The translations under genes were made by a program, and so were the position numbers. From Candidatus Roizmanbacteria bacterium RIFCSPHIGHO2_12_FULL_38_13 (GTDB lineage: Bacteria; Patescibacteriota; Microgenomatia; UBA1406; GWC2-37-13): a stretch of 64,000 nucleotides of DNA. The stretch is from positions 11,244 through 75,243 of the forward strand of contig MFZZ01000042.1 of the NCBI GenBank assembly GCA_001789555.1, read 5' to 3'. Of this stretch, positions 5,048 to 22,534 are shown one piece after another. A model generated the notes under the pieces. It did no database searches, was not told where the DNA came from, and saw only the letters and a program-made list of their open reading frames with translations. Within the stretch, counting starts at the first letter, position 1; each line of letters opens with the position of its first letter.

Positions 5048-5439
5048 TCTTGGCAGAGGCCAAAAAATTCTAAATGGTGATGATCGATCAGAAACTTGGA
5101 TTTTTCGTTGATTTTCTTGTCAAAATTTATTTCATTCATCTCCACATCTTCGATCGTCCCACATTTATTGCAAATCAGATGGTGATGATGATAGTTTTTA
5201 TTGACAAGCTCATATCTTTTCTTACCCTCACCAAGTTCGATGGAGTAAACAACACTCATCTTTACAAAAAGCTCGAGCGATCTATAAACCGAAGCAAGAT
5301 CGACCCGAATATTCTTTTTGTCCAAAGCATCATGTATTTCCTCGGCAGAGAGGGGATAGTTCGACAGTACCTTTATGATTTCTAGACGAGGTTTTGTCAC
5401 TCGAAATCCTTTTTCTTTGAGTAGAGAAACAATGTTCAT
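5038..5439 (-). CDS. Fur-family metalloregulator (Zur-like)
   Basis: Winged-helix N-terminus, HHHHLICNKCG and a C-terminal CQDC pair. It is the first gene of the znu-like operon. Confidence 0.8.
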   Translation of the reverse strand: MNIVSLLKEKGFRVTKPRLEIIKVLSNYPLSAEEIHDALDKKNIRVDLASVYRSLELFVKMSVVYSIELGEGKKRYELVNKNYHHHHLICNKCGTIEDVEMNEINFDKKINEKSKFLIDHHHLEFFGLCQDCQ

Positions 5440-10371: not shown

Positions 10372-11241
10372 TTACGAGAAATACGTTTCCTGCCAGTGCG
10401 GGTCGGTTTCAACCGTAAGATCAAGATAAACTTTTTTATTTATTGCAAGTGCGATCTCTTTTCTGGCATAACTGCCTATTTCCTTTATTTTTCTTCCTCT
10501 TGCACCAATAAGCATTTTTTTATAGCGGTCGGCAGTTGTTAATATTCTTGCCTTTATATACATGACTCCGTTGCCGCGTTCTTTGATCTCATCAATCAAA
10601 ATATGTGAAGAATAAGGTATCTCCTCGCCCATCATGAGAAAGATTTTTTCACGAATGAGCTCGGCTATAAAGCCTGTGCTGTCCATATTCAGTATGGGAT
10701 AGACGAGACCCTCATGAGTAAATTCGCTTTCCGTTTTTTCCGGTAAAATCTCAAAGATATAATCTAGGAGAGGTTTCATATGTTTTTTTTCCAAAGCGGA
10801 GATGCGAAAAACTTTCTGAAATTCATCTTCGATAAATTTGTACTGCACCATATATTTTGGGTCTTTATTATCCATTTTGTTATATACAAGGATGACCGGA
10901 GCTTTCATTTTTCGCGCGATGCCAAGCACTTTTGCCTCTTCAAAATCCCGCCTCCTAGTTGGGTCGATCATATAAATAACAACATCTACTTTTTTATTTA
11001 CCTCACGAAGTGCTCGCTCGTTGATTTTTTTTGAAAGAAGGTCTTTTGTTTTTCCAAAAATACCAGGCGTATCGGTAAAAATGATGTTTCCTCGATCTTC
11101 ATGATAAAAACCCTGGATCACTTGTCTTGTGGTTTGCGGCTTTGGTGAGGTGATCGCGACTTTTTGACCAATAACATTGTTGACAAACGTGGATTTGCCG
11201 ACATTGGGGCGACCGAGCAATAATACATATCCTTCTTTCAT
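10372..11241 (-). CDS. era: GTPase Era
   Basis: G1 GRPNVGKST, G3 DTPG, G4 NKMD, plus a C-terminal KH domain. Confidence 0.9.
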   Translation of the reverse strand: MKEGYVLLLGRPNVGKSTFVNNVIGQKVAITSPKPQTTRQVIQGFYHEDRGNIIFTDTPGIFGKTKDLLSKKINERALREVNKKVDVVIYMIDPTRRRDFEEAKVLGIARKMKAPVILVYNKMDNKDPKYMVQYKFIEDEFQKVFRISALEKKHMKPLLDYIFEILPEKTESEFTHEGLVYPILNMDSTGFIAELIREKIFLMMGEEIPYSSHILIDEIKERGNGVMYIKARILTTADRYKKMLIGARGRKIKEIGSYARKEIALAINKKVYLDLTVETDPHWQETYFS

Positions 11242-11267
11242 GGAATGATATTATATCATTTAACTAC

Positions 11268-11293
11268 TTGACATATTGACATATTTATGTCAA
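11268..11293. promoter_or_regulatory. candidate promoter/operator of the vapBC-like module
   Basis: TTGACATA-TTGACATA direct repeat followed by the inverted copy TATGTCAA, 10 nt upstream of the ATG at 11303. Confidence 0.35.
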
Positions 11294-11302
11294 ACTACTT
11301 TT

Positions 11303-11539
11303 ATGCAAATGATCAGAACAACATTACGTCTACCAATACAATTAAAAAAGGCTGCAGAAAAGAAAGCTACTGAGCAAGAAACTACATTGCAAGATTTATT
11401 TAATCGTGCATTAAAGCTTTATATTGATCATGCTGATAAAACGCGAGCCAAGAAAATAGTCTTTAGAAGTCATGACCTCGGAGTTCCCCTTGACAATTTA
11501 ACTCGTGAGGATATATACGGTGAACCTGAAACACCATGA
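11303..11539 (+). CDS. antitoxin (VapB-like)
   Basis: MQMIRTTLRLPIQLKKAAEKKA is a typical antitoxin N-terminus. Overlaps the PIN gene by 4 nt. Confidence 0.5.
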   Translation: MQMIRTTLRLPIQLKKAAEKKATEQETTLQDLFNRALKLYIDHADKTRAKKIVFRSHDLGVPLDNLTREDIYGEPETP

Positions 11540-11955
11540 AAATTCTTCTTGATTCAAATATTATTATCTACTCTTTGAATAAATTGTCCCCGAAATGTAT
11601 GCAGGCTCAGGGTTTCATAGTGGAACATCAAAGCAATTTGGTAGTTGCTCATCAAGATATGAATGAAACTTTAAGGATACTTACGCACAAAACTTTTCCG
11701 TCAAGCATGACGTCGGGACAAGCATTAAAAGCTGTGGACGGCATACTTCAAGGATTAGAAATTATTAATCCTCCGCCTGTTACATATAATATAGTGAAGG
11801 AATTAATAAGTTTGTATAAACTAAAAGGAAATGCGGTGTTTGATGCTTATTTAGTGGCAACCATGTTGTCAAATGATATTAGTCACATAGCAACAGACAA
11901 TGTAAAGCATTTTAAACTATTTAAACAGATCAAAGTGGTTAATCCTTTTAATTAG
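11536..11955 (+). CDS. PIN-domain toxin (VapC-like)
   Basis: ILLDSNIIIY at the N-terminus and FDAYLVATM / HIATDN blocks. Confidence 0.7.
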   Translation: MKILLDSNIIIYSLNKLSPKCMQAQGFIVEHQSNLVVAHQDMNETLRILTHKTFPSSMTSGQALKAVDGILQGLEIINPPPVTYNIVKELISLYKLKGNAVFDAYLVATMLSNDISHIATDNVKHFKLFKQIKVVNPFN

Positions 11956-12133
11956 CATAAACTCCTTAAATAAGTATTTTTGGGTTTTTATTTGATAAAA
12001 TATACTACCTTAACAATCAAATCATGCGGGGTCGCCCGCCTGCATCGCTATGCTGATACTAATAATTTTTAATAAAGATTAAAAGATAAACTAAAAGCTA
12101 GTTTACAAGAAACAATAAAGTTGTAAACAGGGC

Positions 12134-12215
12134 TGGGGGATCGTCTAATGGTAGCCAGCGCCGTTGGCGCGGTCTCGCCGAAAGTATTTAGGCGATGAGA
12201 CAACAGACTTTGGAT
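12134..12215 (+). pseudogene. relic 5' half of tRNA-Gln, interrupted by a 44-nt GC-rich insert
   Basis: 12134-12154 (21 nt) and 12199-12215 (17 nt) are identical to positions 1-21 and 22-38 of the intact tRNA-Gln at 12468. No 3' half follows. Confidence 0.8.
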
Positions 12216-12222
12216 AATTTGT

Positions 12223-12465
12223 ATGTTTTATACACATATATTAAAAAGTACATTAAAAAATTGGTATTATATCGGACATACATCCGATATAGATAAAAGA
12301 TTAAAAGAGCATAATAAAGGCAGAAGTAAATAAACTAAGCCTTATAAACCCTTTGAATTAGTATATTTCGAAAAATTTGAAACTAAAGGCGAAGCTTTTA
12401 AAAGAGAACAACAAGTAAAGAAATATAGACACGGAGAAGCATTTAAGAAATTATTAGATAAATAA
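12223..12465 (+). pseudogene. GIY-YIG nuclease (YhbQ/UPF0213-like) with an in-frame TAA
   Basis: My translation: MFYTHILKSTLKNWYYIGHTSDIDKRLKEHNKGRSK-stop-TKPYKPFELVYFEKFETKGEAFKREQQVKKYRHGEAFKKLLDK. It has the GIY-YIG-type YxYIL...YIGxT...RLxxHN...LVYxE...A..RE layout. The TAA is at 12331-12333. Confidence 0.75.
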
Positions 12466-12467
12466 TA

Positions 12468-12538
12468 TGGGGGATCGTCTAATGGTAGGACAACAGACTT
12501 TGGATCTGTTTATCCAGGTCCGAATCCTGGTCCCCCAG
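12468..12538 (+). tRNA. tRNA-Gln (TTG), CCA not encoded
   Basis: Cloverleaf: acceptor TGGGGGA/TCCCCCA, D-arm GTCT-AATGGTA-GGAC, anticodon arm ACAGA-CTTTGGA-TCTGT, T-arm CCAGG-TCCGAAT-CCTGG, discriminator G. Confidence 0.9.
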
Positions 12539-12546
12539 CAAACTTT

Positions 12547-12996
12547 GTGCAAACAATAATGATACATTCTGAAAATAAAGATAAATTTATACTAACTTTA
12601 CATAGATATTTTATTTGGGCTTTATATCAACATAACACTTTTAAAACGGTAATACGTGTTGTTAATACAGAGAAGACTAGAGAATCTGCACGATTTACAA
12701 GACCTTTTGGATACGGAAGTTATTGGTATGCTTCTATGTATGTGGTAATTGAAGGTTGGTTAGAGCTCAAACTACATGACAAAAAAATTGATGTATTTTT
12801 GAAAAACGCAAAATATATTCAGTTGCTTAGAAGATATAGGAATGGCGTTTTTCATTTCCAAAAAGATTATGAAGATAATAGATTCGAAATCTTTTTTAAA
12901 CGAGGTTCCGATTTTAATATTTGGGTGGATGAGATTTATCATGAATTTGATAGATTTTTTTTAGAATGGTCAAAAAAAGAAAAAAGTGAAAAGTAA
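12547..12996 (+). CDS. hypothetical protein with an Rx4H (HEPN-like) motif
   Basis: 149 aa, looks alpha-helical. LLRRYRNGVFHFQ contains RNxxxH. The start may instead be the ATG at 12559. Confidence 0.5.
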   Translation: MQTIMIHSENKDKFILTLHRYFIWALYQHNTFKTVIRVVNTEKTRESARFTRPFGYGSYWYASMYVVIEGWLELKLHDKKIDVFLKNAKYIQLLRRYRNGVFHFQKDYEDNRFEIFFKRGSDFNIWVDEIYHEFDRFFLEWSKKEKSEK

Positions 12997-13107
12997 TTAA
13001 ATACAACACACAAAACTGTTTTTAGAATAAAAAGTTCCCACATAATCAACGAGTGCCAGCAAAGACGATCATGCCTTTCATTTTGATATAATTCACGCGT
13101 AGTCCTT

Positions 13108-14277
13108 ATGAGAAAAGAATATGCCGGTGTAGCGATTAATAAAATACATAATTATTACAAGTATCTTACCCATAAAGGTTTTATAGATAAGAATAGGGAA
13201 AGTCTAAGAGCGGCTTATTGGGTAATTAGTTGTTCTTACAACATAGACGTAGGAATGGGAAATAAAACTAAGGCAACTTGGGATGATTTTAAACGTGCTG
13301 GGTACGAAAACGAGGAAGCTTTTCATAACTTTATGGAATGCGTGTTTCAACTCGAAGGAGATTTAGATAATTATTTTAAGCCAGACTGGATTAATTTTGA
13401 TGATGAAGAGAGTTATATAAATGATAATATCCTCCAAGGTTTTCAGTCTAAAACTGGCTATTTTAATTATCAAAAACTAATTACTTTAATTGAGGAACTA
13501 AATTTCAACTATTCTAACAAAAAAACTTACTCAGCTTGTATGGTTTTAAGAGCAATTTTAGATCACGTACCTCCTCTACTTGATAAGGATGATTTTAGTA
13601 GTATGGTAAACAATCATATTTGGGGCAATGAAAAGTCTTCTCGAAGAAAAGCAGTAAAAGAATTACTTACTTTCAGAAATATTCCTGACGATGTATTACA
13701 TAATCAAATTACAGATAAAAGTGATGTGATTGATTTTACATACCTGCCGAGCAAATTTTCAGTTAACGTTTTATTAAAAGAATGTTTAGAGAGTAAAATC
13801 GAGTTAAAAACGGAGAGAAAATTTGTGAAACAAAAAAATAGGAAGGATGATAATATCAGTCTTGATTTGAGGATAGATTTTGATGAGCTAAAAATTTCTT
13901 GGGCTAATTATGCGGTGAGAAGTTGGGTATGGCCATCTTTTAGAATGGTTTTGTCTATCAACAACTTTCGGAATAAGTCGCCAGAATATATAAAAGCCTA
14001 TCTTGTAGGGAATTCAAATGATGGTAGATGGGAAGCTAGAAATTTTATTTTTTTGAATAGAGAAGATGAGAGTAAAACCAGGTCAAACGAAGATTTTAGA
14101 GTAGAAGCAGGATATAAAGAAAAAGTGTCGCTTTTTGTATCGAATTATGATATTGGATTCACAGGACAGAAACCTATGCCAGATATCGATAAAGATAGTT
14201 TAGAGCTGATTATCGAAACAGAAAGTGAAAAGAAGATAACTTTGCCTATAAAAGCTGGATGGATTTATAAAGGCTAA
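13108..14277 (+). CDS. hypothetical protein (389 aa), helical N-terminal part with an Rx4H motif and a beta-rich C-terminal domain
   Basis: Long intact ORF. MVLRAILDHVPPLL contains an Rx4H motif. No other motif recognised. Confidence 0.5.
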   Translation: MRKEYAGVAINKIHNYYKYLTHKGFIDKNRESLRAAYWVISCSYNIDVGMGNKTKATWDDFKRAGYENEEAFHNFMECVFQLEGDLDNYFKPDWINFDDEESYINDNILQGFQSKTGYFNYQKLITLIEELNFNYSNKKTYSACMVLRAILDHVPPLLDKDDFSSMVNNHIWGNEKSSRRKAVKELLTFRNIPDDVLHNQITDKSDVIDFTYLPSKFSVNVLLKECLESKIELKTERKFVKQKNRKDDNISLDLRIDFDELKISWANYAVRSWVWPSFRMVLSINNFRNKSPEYIKAYLVGNSNDGRWEARNFIFLNREDESKTRSNEDFRVEAGYKEKVSLFVSNYDIGFTGQKPMPDIDKDSLELIIETESEKKITLPIKAGWIYKG

Positions 14278-22330: not shown

Positions 22331-22534
22331 TACTTGTGAGAGTTCACGGTCTTTGACAAATCTAGATCAATCTATATCACGTCATTCCGAACTCGCCTGC
22401 CCGCCGAATAGGAGGGTTTCGGAATCTCCTTGTTAAGATGCTGAAATCACCGCTTAGCGGGATCCCGCAAAAGGCGGGATAAATTCAGCATGACGAGTAT
22501 TGTGTCAAGACTTGTGAACTCTTACATAACAAGT
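22331..22534. mobile_element. MITE-like element: ~28-bp imperfect terminal inverted repeats around two hairpin modules
   Basis: Left end TACTTGTGAGAGTTCACGGTCTTTGACA, right end TGTCAAGACTTGTGAACTCTTACA...AAGT. The core holds CGTCATTCCGAA...TTCGGAAT and ATGCTGAA...TTCAGCATGACG hairpins. Confidence 0.55.

Follow-up and report, generated by a model that had tools for sequence, protein, structure and literature searches.

In the 64,000-nt stretch of DNA analysed here (the window), the segment 12134-12539 is best read as one selfish cassette of about 400 bp, composed of a tRNA-Gln 5' part disabled by a double hairpin (motif M), a GIY-YIG nuclease gene and a complete tRNA-Gln. The cassette would be of the homing type, breaking a tRNA gene and supplying its replacement, a reading to which we give a probability of roughly 55%. 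Judged from the sequences compared, it appears to be a member of a widespread family of tRNA-gene cassettes. No earlier description of such cassettes was found in the full-text literature searched, the coverage of which was incomplete, meaning that novelty is unproven. The first-pass annotation of this DNA knew of no described element class with this architecture; this stands for cassettes in tRNA genes, but has to be qualified by the analogous fungal mitochondrial mORFs, which are documented (PMC3630166).

Organization of the tRNA-Gln locus

The features of the locus, and a second copy of M found elsewhere in the window, are the following (L numbers designate the loci compared):

12025..12034, + strand: remnant of the native tRNA-Gln, positions 1-10 (TGCGGGGTCG); L092 has TGCGGGGTCGTCTAACGG... 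equally far from the same spacer
12035..12054, + strand: relic, 5' half of a GC-rich long hairpin of a second type (CCCGCCTGCATCGCTATGC), complete in L001 and L004
12055..12133, no strand: AT-rich filler that ends in GGGC, missing from L001 and L002
12134..12154, + strand: orphan copy of tRNA-Gln positions 1-21 (acceptor 5' strand to D loop), exact repeat of 12468-12488
12155..12198, + strand: double-hairpin motif M, in the D loop behind position 21 (covariance model R1)
12199..12215, + strand: orphan copy of tRNA-Gln positions 22-38, exact repeat of 12489-12505
12223..12465, + strand: GIY-YIG (SLX1/UPF0213-like) nuclease gene, apparently pseudogenised (Pfam PF01541)
12468..12539, + strand: intact tRNA-Gln(UUG), probably cassette-supplied as a xenologous replacement (ARAGORN, Rfam)
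22443..22486, + strand: second M copy without ORF, at the tip of an AT-rich hairpin (R1 match, 37.6 bits)

The tRNA-Gln(UUG) at 12468-12538 or 12539 was detected by both ARAGORN and Rfam (62.4 bits), and a blastn-short search within the 64-kb window recovered the two orphan blocks, in register, with E-values of 7e-06 (21-nt block) and 0.002 (17-nt block). The second block (12199-12215) comprises the D stem 3' strand, the anticodon stem 5' strand and the anticodon loop. Only 7 nt separate the orphan copy from the ATG of the ORF, the stop codon of which lies 2 nt before the tRNA. The coordinates and sequences given in the first-pass annotation for the intact tRNA, the 21- and 17-nt exact repeats, the GIY-YIG ORF and these spacings were confirmed. 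Two elements had escaped it: the 44 nt between the blocks (12155-12198), which constitute a conserved structured motif, and the 10-nt host tRNA-Gln remnant at 12025-12034.

The second-type hairpin is found complete, as TCGCCCGCCTGCATCGCTATGCGAAGCATTGCGGGCAG, at the corresponding site of L001 and of L004; it is absent in L002 and has a relative in the opposite orientation in the T loop of L010. The GGGC that ends the filler 12055-12133 is possibly the 3' end of the broken second-type hairpin. Derivation of the filler from a decayed older ORF copy was considered but is not supported, the local alignment score of 71.6 falling within those of shuffles (mean 61.9, maximum 77). A promoter and terminator scan of 11900-12700 gave results no better than shuffles.

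Empty site and foreign origin of the cassette

The sister allele L092 corresponds to an empty site, having the same Era-vapBC flank and spacer and a plain tRNA-Gln, with neither ORF, M nor orphan. Its homology to the window (87%) extends from 10372 to 12034 and ends at position 10 of the native tRNA. The window tRNA is 81.9% identical to the native, L092-type tRNA, against 95.7% for the adjoining spacer. The cassette thus appears to have replaced the resident tRNA-Gln, whose surviving native part would be the 10 nt at 12025-12034. Related assemblies are polymorphic in this respect, with naive alleles among L092-L099 and occupied ones in the window, L095 and L001-L004, the ORF being dead in the window and L095 and intact in L001 and L002. 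An 83%-identical Era lineage (L104) presents no tRNA-Gln at the corresponding place. The empty allele, which the first-pass annotation had proposed to seek in relatives, and the recurrence of the layout in other genomes bear out its suggestion of a nuclease-carrying element that sits in a tRNA-Gln gene and supplies a working tRNA.

When the window is compared with L002, a comparison of cassette and flank that concerns this single pair of lineages, identity reaches 98.6% in the tRNA, 97.6% in the orphan plus M, 88.9% in the ORF and 82.8% in the Era coding sequence. The cassette homology starts at orphan position 1 and stops at the tRNA 3' end. An identity above that of the host flank indicates transfer, and the whole unit (orphan 5' part, M, ORF and tRNA) is foreign to its host. 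The first-pass reading has to be amended on this point: the orphan travels with the cassette (97.6% versus 82.8% for Era) and is not a host leftover, that being the 10 nt at 12025-12034. The D loop of the cassette tRNA (AATGGTAG versus native AACGGTAA) was also considered as a protective variant, a possibility weakened by its presence in the naive L100.

The least probable of all accounts would be an ordinary by-product: an integrase island that duplicated its att site, illegitimate repair that happened once and left a scar, or an artefact of assembly. tRNA genes are indeed common island sites, and gene content beyond the tRNA differs between the window and the naive allele. Against this, a profile search of the locus found no integrase or recombinase beside the cassette, where the neighbours are PIN/VapBC and ORFs; the duplicated portion is the 5' one, not the 3'; and the layout is shared by separately assembled contigs (L095, L001-L004) and by dozens of genomes. 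The lack of an integrase in the locus and the repeat of the tRNA 5' part uphold the earlier distinction from integrase islands. The repair scar, second proposal of the first-pass annotation, leaves a hairpin sequence conserved across phyla unexplained.

The double-hairpin motif

The 44 nt of M between the orphan blocks are arranged as CCAGCGCC-GTT-GGCGCGG / TCTCGCC-loop-GGCGATGAGA, and the covariance model R1 matches 12151-12204 with 44.1 bits (E 6.5e-10). The core CCGCC/GGCGG is kept across phyla, with compensatory base changes. In L001-L018 M occupies the same tRNA position as in the window. The conserved junction is this double hairpin, at position 21/22 within the D loop, rather than the anticodon loop or stem proposed at first. 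Every mappable M insertion (47/47) lies in a D, anticodon or T loop, is preceded by G or A and has tRNA in register on either side, and some hairpins stand in for whole tRNA arms. No target-site duplication was seen around M, across which the tRNA sequence runs on, and no terminal inverted repeats were seen either; the motif is internally palindromic but fixed in orientation. Folded as DNA, M alone gives z = -2.7, and the RNA fold of orphan plus M has a stability not above shuffles (z = -0.45). An Rfam search (E <= 1) for a ribozyme, intron or known motif matching M in 10 related loci returned tRNAs only.

M occurs inside M and in tandem in L013 and L043, and L021 has ORF-less copies of it within tRNA-Thr genes repeated in tandem, at 2 kb from any ORF. 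L012 contains M, yet none upstream of its ORF. The second M of the window (R1 E 4e-08) is found some 10 kb from the ORF, within a multibranched intergenic structure (22376-22500) that, folded as DNA, has z = -4.6.

These properties invite an alternative in which what moves is the GC-rich hairpin module, a miniature element that would enter single-stranded loops of folded DNA, for example tRNA-gene cloverleaves exposed in transcription or replication. The SLX1-like nuclease would then be a structure-specific "transposase" acting in cis or trans, and an intact tRNA would lie nearby because insertions into a sole copy are lethal and only duplicated loci survive. The loop restriction and register of M, its nested and tandem copies, its ORF-less occurrences in the L021 tRNA-Thr copies and on the window hairpin tip, the compensated core, the arrangement in L012 and the branched-DNA nuclease SLX1 as the closest structure all favour this view. 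It is nevertheless unlikely, given that neither terminal inverted repeats nor target-site duplications are seen and that a hydrolytic GIY-YIG nuclease alone cannot join strands. Also left unexplained are the extent of the conserved transferred block, which begins with orphan position 1 and takes in everything up to the 3' end of the tRNA, and the constant position of the ORF between two copies of one tRNA.

The nuclease gene and its product

The ORF at 12223-12465 matches the Pfam GIY-YIG family PF01541 with 60.1 bits (cut-off 22.6; E 2.6e-16). It carries an in-frame TAA at 12331-12333, where relatives have Ser (TCA in L001), and the gene appears to have been pseudogenised by this TCA>TAA change. 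The TAA is also present in L095, a contig of another assembly that is 99.96% identical over 2.2 kb, so that it is probably real and a sequencing error unlikely. Three more family loci have ORFs with in-frame stops. The homologue P0001 is intact and 90% identical to the window ORF product, and the catalytic-core residues Y5, Y16, G18, R26, H30 and E62 are invariant among 18 relatives.

The protein has 80 aa and a single domain, without a DNA-binding domain. Its AlphaFold model (pLDDT 92) displays a three-stranded sheet with helices, that is, the alpha/beta GIY-YIG fold. The sequence neighbours are 1zg2 (E 9e-13), 1ywl and SLX1 entries; in structure it is closer to SLX1 (TM 0.69-0.75, rmsd 1.5-1.8 A) than to I-TevI (TM 0.52). 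The product is accordingly predicted, from alignments and model, to belong to the SLX1/UPF0213 branch of GIY-YIG proteins rather than to the homing-enzyme branch. Phage, plasmid and viral collections yielded just generic UPF0213/YazA-type or distant matches, the family being essentially absent from the phage and viral ones searched.

The family in other genomes

A census of the family gathered 80 loci belonging to many phyla. A same-strand tRNA gene (Ser, Tyr, Gln, Glu, Pro, Thr or Cys) abuts the ORF in 68 of them, within 60 nt after it in 59 and just before it in 9, and in 53 of these 68 the opposite side of the ORF carries a further copy of that tRNA, disrupted by a hairpin (at least 10 nt exact). 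The check advised in the first-pass annotation, namely to look for GIY-YIG ORFs beside tRNA genes with orphan copies, was thereby answered in its favour. The nearest protein neighbour has the matching tRNA type in 47/80 loci, against a shuffle mean of 18, and protein clades track tRNA identity. Several cassette copies may coexist in one genome beside different tRNAs (L005). The mirror layout (tRNA-ORF-disabled tRNA) and tandem arrays (M-ORF-M-ORF-tRNA) also occur. The junction between orphan and ORF is variable, at tRNA positions 9, ~28, ~35, 39 or 65.

In L006 and L012 the orphan is the 5' part of an outer tRNA-Gln that is otherwise complete, contains hairpin inserts and is split by insertion of the ORF and tRNA. 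The first-pass annotation had regarded an orphan belonging to a second complete tRNA gene as evidence against its interpretation; these loci approach that situation, with the reservation that the outer genes are hairpin-bearing and split. They also bring up the view that outer hairpin-bearing tRNAs are functional genes with novel small introns, or split tRNAs, the ORF and tRNA forming a large intron. Such a view could draw on the perfect acceptor, anticodon and T stems retained by the outer tRNAs of L006, L010 and L012, and on inserts at loop positions, like those of non-canonical archaeal tRNA introns. It is nonetheless very improbable: all resolved loci have an uninterrupted tRNA of matching identity next door, a 3' half is missing altogether from most orphans, and several hairpins take the place of arms indispensable to a tRNA. 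Moreover, an Rfam search of the window region (E <= 10) returned tRNAs only, with no group I/II intron or other RNA family, and the hosts are bacteria (tRNA-Gln U1-A72 pair, neighbour gene Era), for which we know of no splicing endonuclease. The uninterrupted downstream tRNA and the orphans without a 3' half likewise led to rejection of a group I intron, a BHB intron and a permuted tRNA; the earlier statement that this is not a conventional intron agrees with the uninterrupted tRNA and the missing intron signal.

ORF and tRNA share one strand and often overlap, which means that they are probably co-transcribed. This arrangement would suit a cellular device acting at the RNA level, in which the truncated tRNA and hairpins form a structured leader or decoy RNA that either regulates the GIY-YIG mRNA and tRNA or undergoes processing together with them, and the protein serves a housekeeping function on tRNA or at its genes. 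The compensatory hairpin changes fit RNA structure equally well, arm-replacing hairpins keep a cloverleaf-like outline, and, when the window is set against L002, orphan plus M is better conserved than the ORF. We consider such a device improbable, however, in view of the patchy distribution (a sister lineage has the site empty), the pseudogenised ORFs, the several copies per genome beside different tRNAs (L005) and a conservation of the cassette above the host flank that points to transfer. The lack of an Rfam family match and the L012 case, in which M is not upstream of the ORF, also count against it, and to our knowledge no GIY-YIG RNase has been described.

A proposed homing mechanism

According to the favoured homing reading, the putative nuclease would nick or break a cognate tRNA gene without cassette at an exposed loop region, and the cassette-bearing copy would serve as repair template for the break. 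The disabled tRNA fragment (left) and the intact tRNA (right) would act as portable homology arms, and all that lies between them would be copied, namely the hairpin, the nuclease gene and the new tRNA's 5' portion. The recipient would be left with a dead, hairpin-marked tRNA copy, a nuclease gene under the tRNA promoter and a working tRNA, and the insertion would therefore not be lethal. Repair copying the hairpin alone could produce hairpin-bearing tRNA copies without ORF, and successive rounds could generate tandem and nested arrays. In the window, the nuclease gene would have died later through the TAA, the usual end of a homing cycle. Within this scheme, we infer the cleavage activity and its target, the repair-mediated copying and the role of M.

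Several observations speak against homing. The protein has no DNA-binding domain, unlike characterised GIY-YIG homing enzymes, and the intact tRNA that is regenerated ought to be a target as well, with no systematic protective difference seen. Homing alone neither needs a hairpin nor explains its conservation across phyla, its confinement to loops (47/47) or its replacement of whole arms. The ORF-less M copy 10 kb away, in a hairpin that is possibly not a tRNA, the lack of M upstream of the L012 ORF and the variable orphan/ORF junction, which requires extra deletions or independent events, are further difficulties. In a more tentative version, possible but doubtful, an undescribed class of bacterial mobile element combines the SLX1-like nuclease with the double hairpin, strikes the cloverleaf loops of tRNA genes under the guidance of shape and carries a rescue tRNA, its range taking in Patescibacteria, Ignavibacteria, Bacteroidota, Omnitrophota and other groups. 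The nuclease would then recognise shape over sequence and plant the hairpin in D, anticodon and T loops.

Comparison with known systems

The closest documented analogue of the cassette would be the fungal mitochondrial mORF, an endonuclease ORF accompanied by a replacement gene end, as in Allomyces atp6 or Glomus atp6/atp9/cox2/nad3 (PMC3630166). Both are free-standing endonuclease ORFs inserted in a gene (LAGLIDADG in mORFs, or GIY-YIG in atp9), with a foreign replacement gene portion brought in and the native portion left as an unexpressed orphan (PMC3630166). mORFs spread by cleavage of ORF-less alleles and repair (PMC3630166), as proposed here for the cassette. In the cassette, too, a functional copy and an orphan copy flank the ORF, the functional one being foreign. 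In contrast, mORFs hit protein-coding genes and replace the 3' end, whereas the cassettes hit bacterial chromosomal tRNA genes, their orphan is usually on the 5' side (in the window the orphan itself is foreign), the nuclease is an 80-aa SLX1/UPF0213-like domain without a DNA-binding domain, and the disabled copy bears a conserved double hairpin as its mark.

A GIY-YIG gene among tRNA genes is also known from the Seg proteins of T4-like phages (PMC2330249). The homing endonuclease SegB resides in the T4 tRNA gene cluster (PMC2330249; also PMC13096335), and its cleavage in the tRNA gene region favours inheritance of the nuclease gene with its flanks and can amplify tRNA loci (PMC2330249). Seg proteins differ in being two-domain, phage-borne enzymes with sequence-tolerant duplex recognition; their systems have neither partial tRNA duplication nor hairpin motif, and the cassette family is essentially absent from the searched phage and viral collections. 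Presence/absence polymorphism with a precise empty site, and an element more similar than its flanks, are shared with homing genes, but not the fused DNA-binding domain of I-TevI, I-BmoI and Seg proteins.

In collaborative homing, reportedly the subject of work by Zeng et al. (2009) and by Bonocora and Shub (2009), a free-standing endonuclease is said to act with an ORF-less insert that disrupts the target site. A nuclease gene beside a short ORF-less insertion in its target gene (here M), the two being co-inherited, is common to both situations. In collaborative homing a self-splicing group I intron forms the insert and the gene is functional; in the cassette the insert is a hairpin of 35-45 nt by which the copy is presumably killed, and an intact gene comes along as a second one.

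Integrase islands also target tRNA genes, restore them with element-borne sequence and leave a partial tRNA repeat. They depend on a tyrosine or serine recombinase, duplicate the 3' end and are kilobases long, whereas the cassette has no recombinase, spans about 400 bp and usually duplicates the 5' part. Neither the recombinase and 3'-end repeat of such islands, nor the ribozyme core of a group I or II intron and a downstream tRNA dependent on splicing, nor an interrupted gene as sole source of its tRNA, as for archaeal-type tRNA introns or split tRNAs, was found.

The rRNA genes of CPR bacteria, the same group (CPR/Patescibacteria), carry non-intron insertion sequences, some of which encode GIY-YIG proteins (PMC11270868). 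These inserts, likened to the cassette by description, are not of group I/II type and sit at tops or bases of stem-loops in a structured-RNA gene (PMC11270868). They concern rRNA genes only, tRNA being unmentioned, and a replacement copy or hairpin motif is unreported for them (PMC11270868). Finally, SLX1 and UPF0213 (YhbQ, YazA) proteins are what the ORF product matches best, in sequence as in structure. SLX1, however, requires SLX4 and has a RING domain, and UPF0213 proteins are encoded by single-copy cellular genes with no tRNA linkage and lack the C-terminal helix K-x-Y-K-x-G-E-A-F-K-K-L of the cassette family.

Biological significance

If the homing reading is true, essential tRNA genes in many uncultured phyla would be routinely overwritten by tiny selfish cassettes that carry their own tRNA, which would open a route for horizontal tRNA gene replacement and generate tRNA pseudogenes as well as tandem arrays of tRNAs. 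The fungal mitochondrial strategy of joining an endonuclease to a replacement gene part would extend to bacterial RNA genes, and the large orphan UPF0213/SLX1-like group would gain a concrete biological context. A parallel exists with synthetic cleave-and-rescue gene drives; under the shape-guided version, the cassette would act on essential RNA genes as a natural drive of the "cleave-and-rescue" type. The compact nuclease and its proposed nucleic-acid partner, the double hairpin, would also be a candidate for structure-guided targeting. As a practical point, ARAGORN mis-parsed the copies that bear hairpins, reporting tRNAs whose anticodons were oddly placed, so that automatic annotation can be misled at such loci.

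Anatomy of the cassette

At the tRNA-Gln locus of the window, a cassette (12134-12539) places a nuclease gene between a 5' copy of the tRNA, here called the orphan, and an intact tRNA-Gln. The coordinates that the first-pass annotation had proposed for the orphan blocks, the ORF and the intact tRNA proved correct with ARAGORN, Rfam, exact repeats and Pfam.

Features of the window
12134-12154: orphan block 1, exact match to tRNA-Gln positions 1-21
12155-12198: M, a conserved GC-rich double hairpin of 44 nt between the orphan blocks
12199-12215: orphan block 2, exact match to tRNA-Gln positions 22-38
12223-12465: GIY-YIG domain ORF (Pfam E 2.6e-16)
12468-12538/9: intact tRNA-Gln(UUG) (ARAGORN; Rfam tRNA 62.4 bits)
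22443-22486: second, ORF-less M copy, capping an AT-rich hairpin in the intergenic region that separates a Fic gene from a malic-enzyme gene

The orphan blocks are mutually in register (E 7e-06 and 0.002, blastn-short within the window), and the ORF starts 7 nt past the orphan copy and stops 2 nt ahead of the intact tRNA. An in-frame TAA lies in the ORF at 12331-12333, where relatives encode Ser (TCA in locus L001). This is probably a real mutation, since the same TAA is present in L095, a contig of a separate assembly with 99.96% identity to the window across 2.2 kb.

The locus had been taken for a duplication of the tRNA 5' half. The exact repeat stands, but the layouts found in relatives are better seen as a pair of tRNA-Gln genes, one intact and the other hairpin-disabled and split by an ORF plus tRNA insert, a description drawn from complete or flanking M-bearing outer copies. 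In loci L006, L009 and L011 the orphan belongs, as its 5' part, to a complete outer tRNA-Gln that carries M in its D loop and another double hairpin in its T loop, with the ORF and the intact inner tRNA-Gln located between the outer T stem and the 3' strand of the acceptor stem. In L012 the insert follows position 9 of the outer tRNA, with M located downstream of the insert, and in L005, L014 and L018 M-bearing partial copies are found on both sides of the ORF and intact tRNA. With an intact tRNA-Gln inside each of these layouts, it is very improbable that the hairpins are novel tRNA introns or that the tRNA gene is split. ARAGORN reports the hairpin-bearing outer tRNA of L006 (1455-1530), L009 and L011 as "tRNA-Gln with anticodon at position 37", meaning that relics of this kind can be wrongly annotated as tRNA genes.

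Six divergent loci (L005 at 5320-5329, L012, L013, L014, L017 and L018) share a 10-nt spacer (consensus GTAGACATGA) after the intact tRNA-Gln and before the downstream M-bearing copy, which may delimit the inserted unit on its right side. The L005 genome (GCA_039738415.1) holds a second cassette on tRNA-Glu(CUC) (L005 560-1000), with a different 50-nt double hairpin after orphan position 11 and an ORF overlapping the intact tRNA.

Empty site and transfer of the block

Comparison of the locus among relatives, as the first-pass annotation had advised, revealed an empty-site allele in a sister lineage (contigs L092-L094 and L096-L099) whose Era protein is 87% identical to that of the window. The Era-vapBC flank and spacer are as in the window and are directly followed by a plain tRNA-Gln (TGCGGGGTCGTCTAACGG...), with no ORF, M or orphan at this locus. 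Homology between the window and this allele (87%) extends from 10372 to 12034, ending at native tRNA position 10, so that 12025-12034 is the true remnant of the host tRNA-Gln. Identity between the intact tRNA of the window and the native one is just 81.9%, against 95.7% for the neighbouring spacer.

A second lineage (L001-L004) encodes an ORF product 90% identical to that of the window. Homology spans orphan position 1 through the tRNA 3' end. Against L002, orphan plus M shows 97.6% identity, the 7-nt leader 100%, the ORF 88.9% and the tRNA 98.6%; the neighbouring Era coding sequence reaches 82.8% and the DNA downstream of the cassette is unalignable. Because the cassette is more similar than Era, and its tRNA unlike the native one beside a near-identical spacer, the comparison of this lineage pair identifies the orphan-to-tRNA unit (~400 bp) as foreign DNA whose transfer postdates the divergence of the hosts.

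The stretch from the native remnant to the orphan comprises half of a second type of long GC-rich hairpin and an AT-rich filler, both probably relics of an earlier event. This second type (CCCGCCTGCA...GCGGGCAGG; window 12035-12054, L001 213-250, T loop of L010) resides inside disabled tRNA-Gln copies in both orientations, and is polymorphic among near-identical strains, being complete in L001 and L004 and absent from L002 and L003.

In the window and in L092-L099, a vapB-vapC (PIN) pair (window 11276-11955) separates Era from the tRNA-Gln locus. Since it is missing from the L001/L004 lineage, where Era adjoins the tRNA locus, this toxin-antitoxin pair appears to be itself an insertion at this hotspot. 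L095 matches the window (99.96%) from vapB onward and carries an Era of the L092 type (80% versus the window Era), switching near 11259-11267 (compared with window 10372-13505), meaning that either the lineages recombined recently or the assembly is chimeric.

The nuclease and its family

The ORF product is a single domain of 80 aa with invariant Y5, Y16, G18, R26, H30 and E62, and lacks a DNA-binding domain. Among solved structures, UPF0213 proteins and SLX1 are closest to it in sequence, and its confident predicted model (pLDDT 92) superposes best on the SLX1 nuclease domain (TM 0.69-0.75, rmsd 1.5-1.8 A), the I-TevI catalytic domain scoring lower (TM 0.52).

A one-genome-per-species scan returned 207 relatives, of which the best 80 were analysed; these span Patescibacteria, Ignavibacteria/Melioribacter, Bacteroidota, Omnitrophota, Planctomycetes and others. 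A same-strand tRNA starts within 60 nt of the ORF end in 59 of these best 80, the ORF often reading into it, and in nine an intact tRNA lies just upstream instead. The adjoining tRNAs are Ser (32), Tyr (16), Gln (7), Glu (5), Pro (5), Thr (2) and Cys (1). The suggested search for adjoining tRNAs with a partial second copy showed that the layout recurs: a second exact copy (at least 10 nt) of the same tRNA lies on the far side of the ORF in 53 of the 68 tRNA-adjoining loci among the best 80. Given this recurrence, we attach next to no credence to the layout being the att repeat of an island, the scar of a repair or an artefact. Mirror layouts, with a complete disabled tRNA copy after the ORF and GC hairpins replacing the D, T or anticodon arm, tandem M-ORF-M-ORF-tRNA arrays and tRNAs with an ORF on either side also occur, and three more ORFs of this set bear in-frame stops. 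The nearest protein neighbour adjoins the same tRNA type in 47 of the best 80 (shuffles: mean 18, maximum 36). In the phage, plasmid and viral-contig collections searched, the ORF family was all but missing.

At L080 (3250-3375) and L086 (3313-3421) the intact tRNA lies between 11-12-nt inverted repeats of leader and trailer (e.g., ATTATTTTCCTA ... TAGGAAAATAAT), which would lengthen the acceptor stem in a precursor RNA.

The hairpin motif

When 25 hand-picked copies were aligned, M was paired in 96% of cells, with compensatory changes at 6 of 13 pairs (e.g., C-G, G-C and U-A at one position); control alignments with 3' partners shifted by 1-3 columns gave just 36-49%. The hairpin sequence is conserved across phyla, and an Rfam scan matched it to no family. 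With a covariance model, M turns up almost exclusively in two positions, immediately 5' of the ORF or immediately 3' of the adjacent tRNA, and the ORF strand scores higher in every case. The compensatory pairing would suit a leader or decoy that acts at the RNA level in a cellular role, a reading that we consider improbable beside the transfer of the block between lineages.

All 47 copies mappable on a neighbouring tRNA fall in loops (D 26, anticodon 16, T 5), each preceded by G or A and with the tRNA in register on both sides. M also occurs alone: two tandem tRNA-Thr(GGT) copies at locus L021 (2880-3185) carry it at the 5' edge of the anticodon loop, ahead of an intact gene and without a nuclease ORF within ~2 kb. 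Beside the second M copy of the window lies another GC-rich insert (~22392-22416), and 22376-22500 adopts a multibranched fold (z = -4.6 as DNA); the region may be a decayed tRNA relic. Loop restriction, ORF-less copies and the SLX1-like fold would agree with M itself being a miniature element that targets loops and is moved by a structure-specific nuclease, a reading that we regard as doubtful given the tRNA and ORF that moved with it.

CCA (often CCACC) nearly always opens M right at the tRNA break point (window 12155-12159 and most copies in L012-L091). By analogy this recalls the CCA/CCACCA tailing of RNA 3' ends, and could be a coincidence or hint at an RNA-level step.

Proposed mechanism

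The reading that we favour, with a probability of roughly 0.55, is that the cassette is a homing-type selfish element. The nuclease would nick or break the cognate tRNA gene; nicking enzymes that cut both alleles exist, e.g., I-HmuI. In repair off the cassette-bearing copy, the homology arms would be the disabled tRNA fragment on one side and the intact tRNA on the other. These arms would work in any genome because tRNA genes are conserved, and the recipient would acquire the hairpin, the nuclease gene and a working tRNA. Repair tracts reaching only a short tRNA stretch past M would yield M-only copies, repeated rounds would produce nesting and arrays, and decay of the nuclease gene would follow, as in the window. 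M could disrupt the target site, anchor the enzyme or be a passenger.

Relation to known systems

A full-text literature search of incomplete coverage returned no description of the tRNA-gene cassette or of M. In CPR rRNA genes, non-intron inserts at stem-loops hold GIY-YIG ORFs, as here, although that paper makes no mention of tRNA genes (PMC11270868). T4 SegB is a GIY-YIG homing enzyme within a tRNA cluster (PMC2330249) and can drive the amplification of tRNA loci (PMC13096335). Among documented systems, the mORF of fungal mitochondria comes closest: there, an endonuclease ORF brings a foreign replacement gene end and the native end is left orphaned (PMC3630166).
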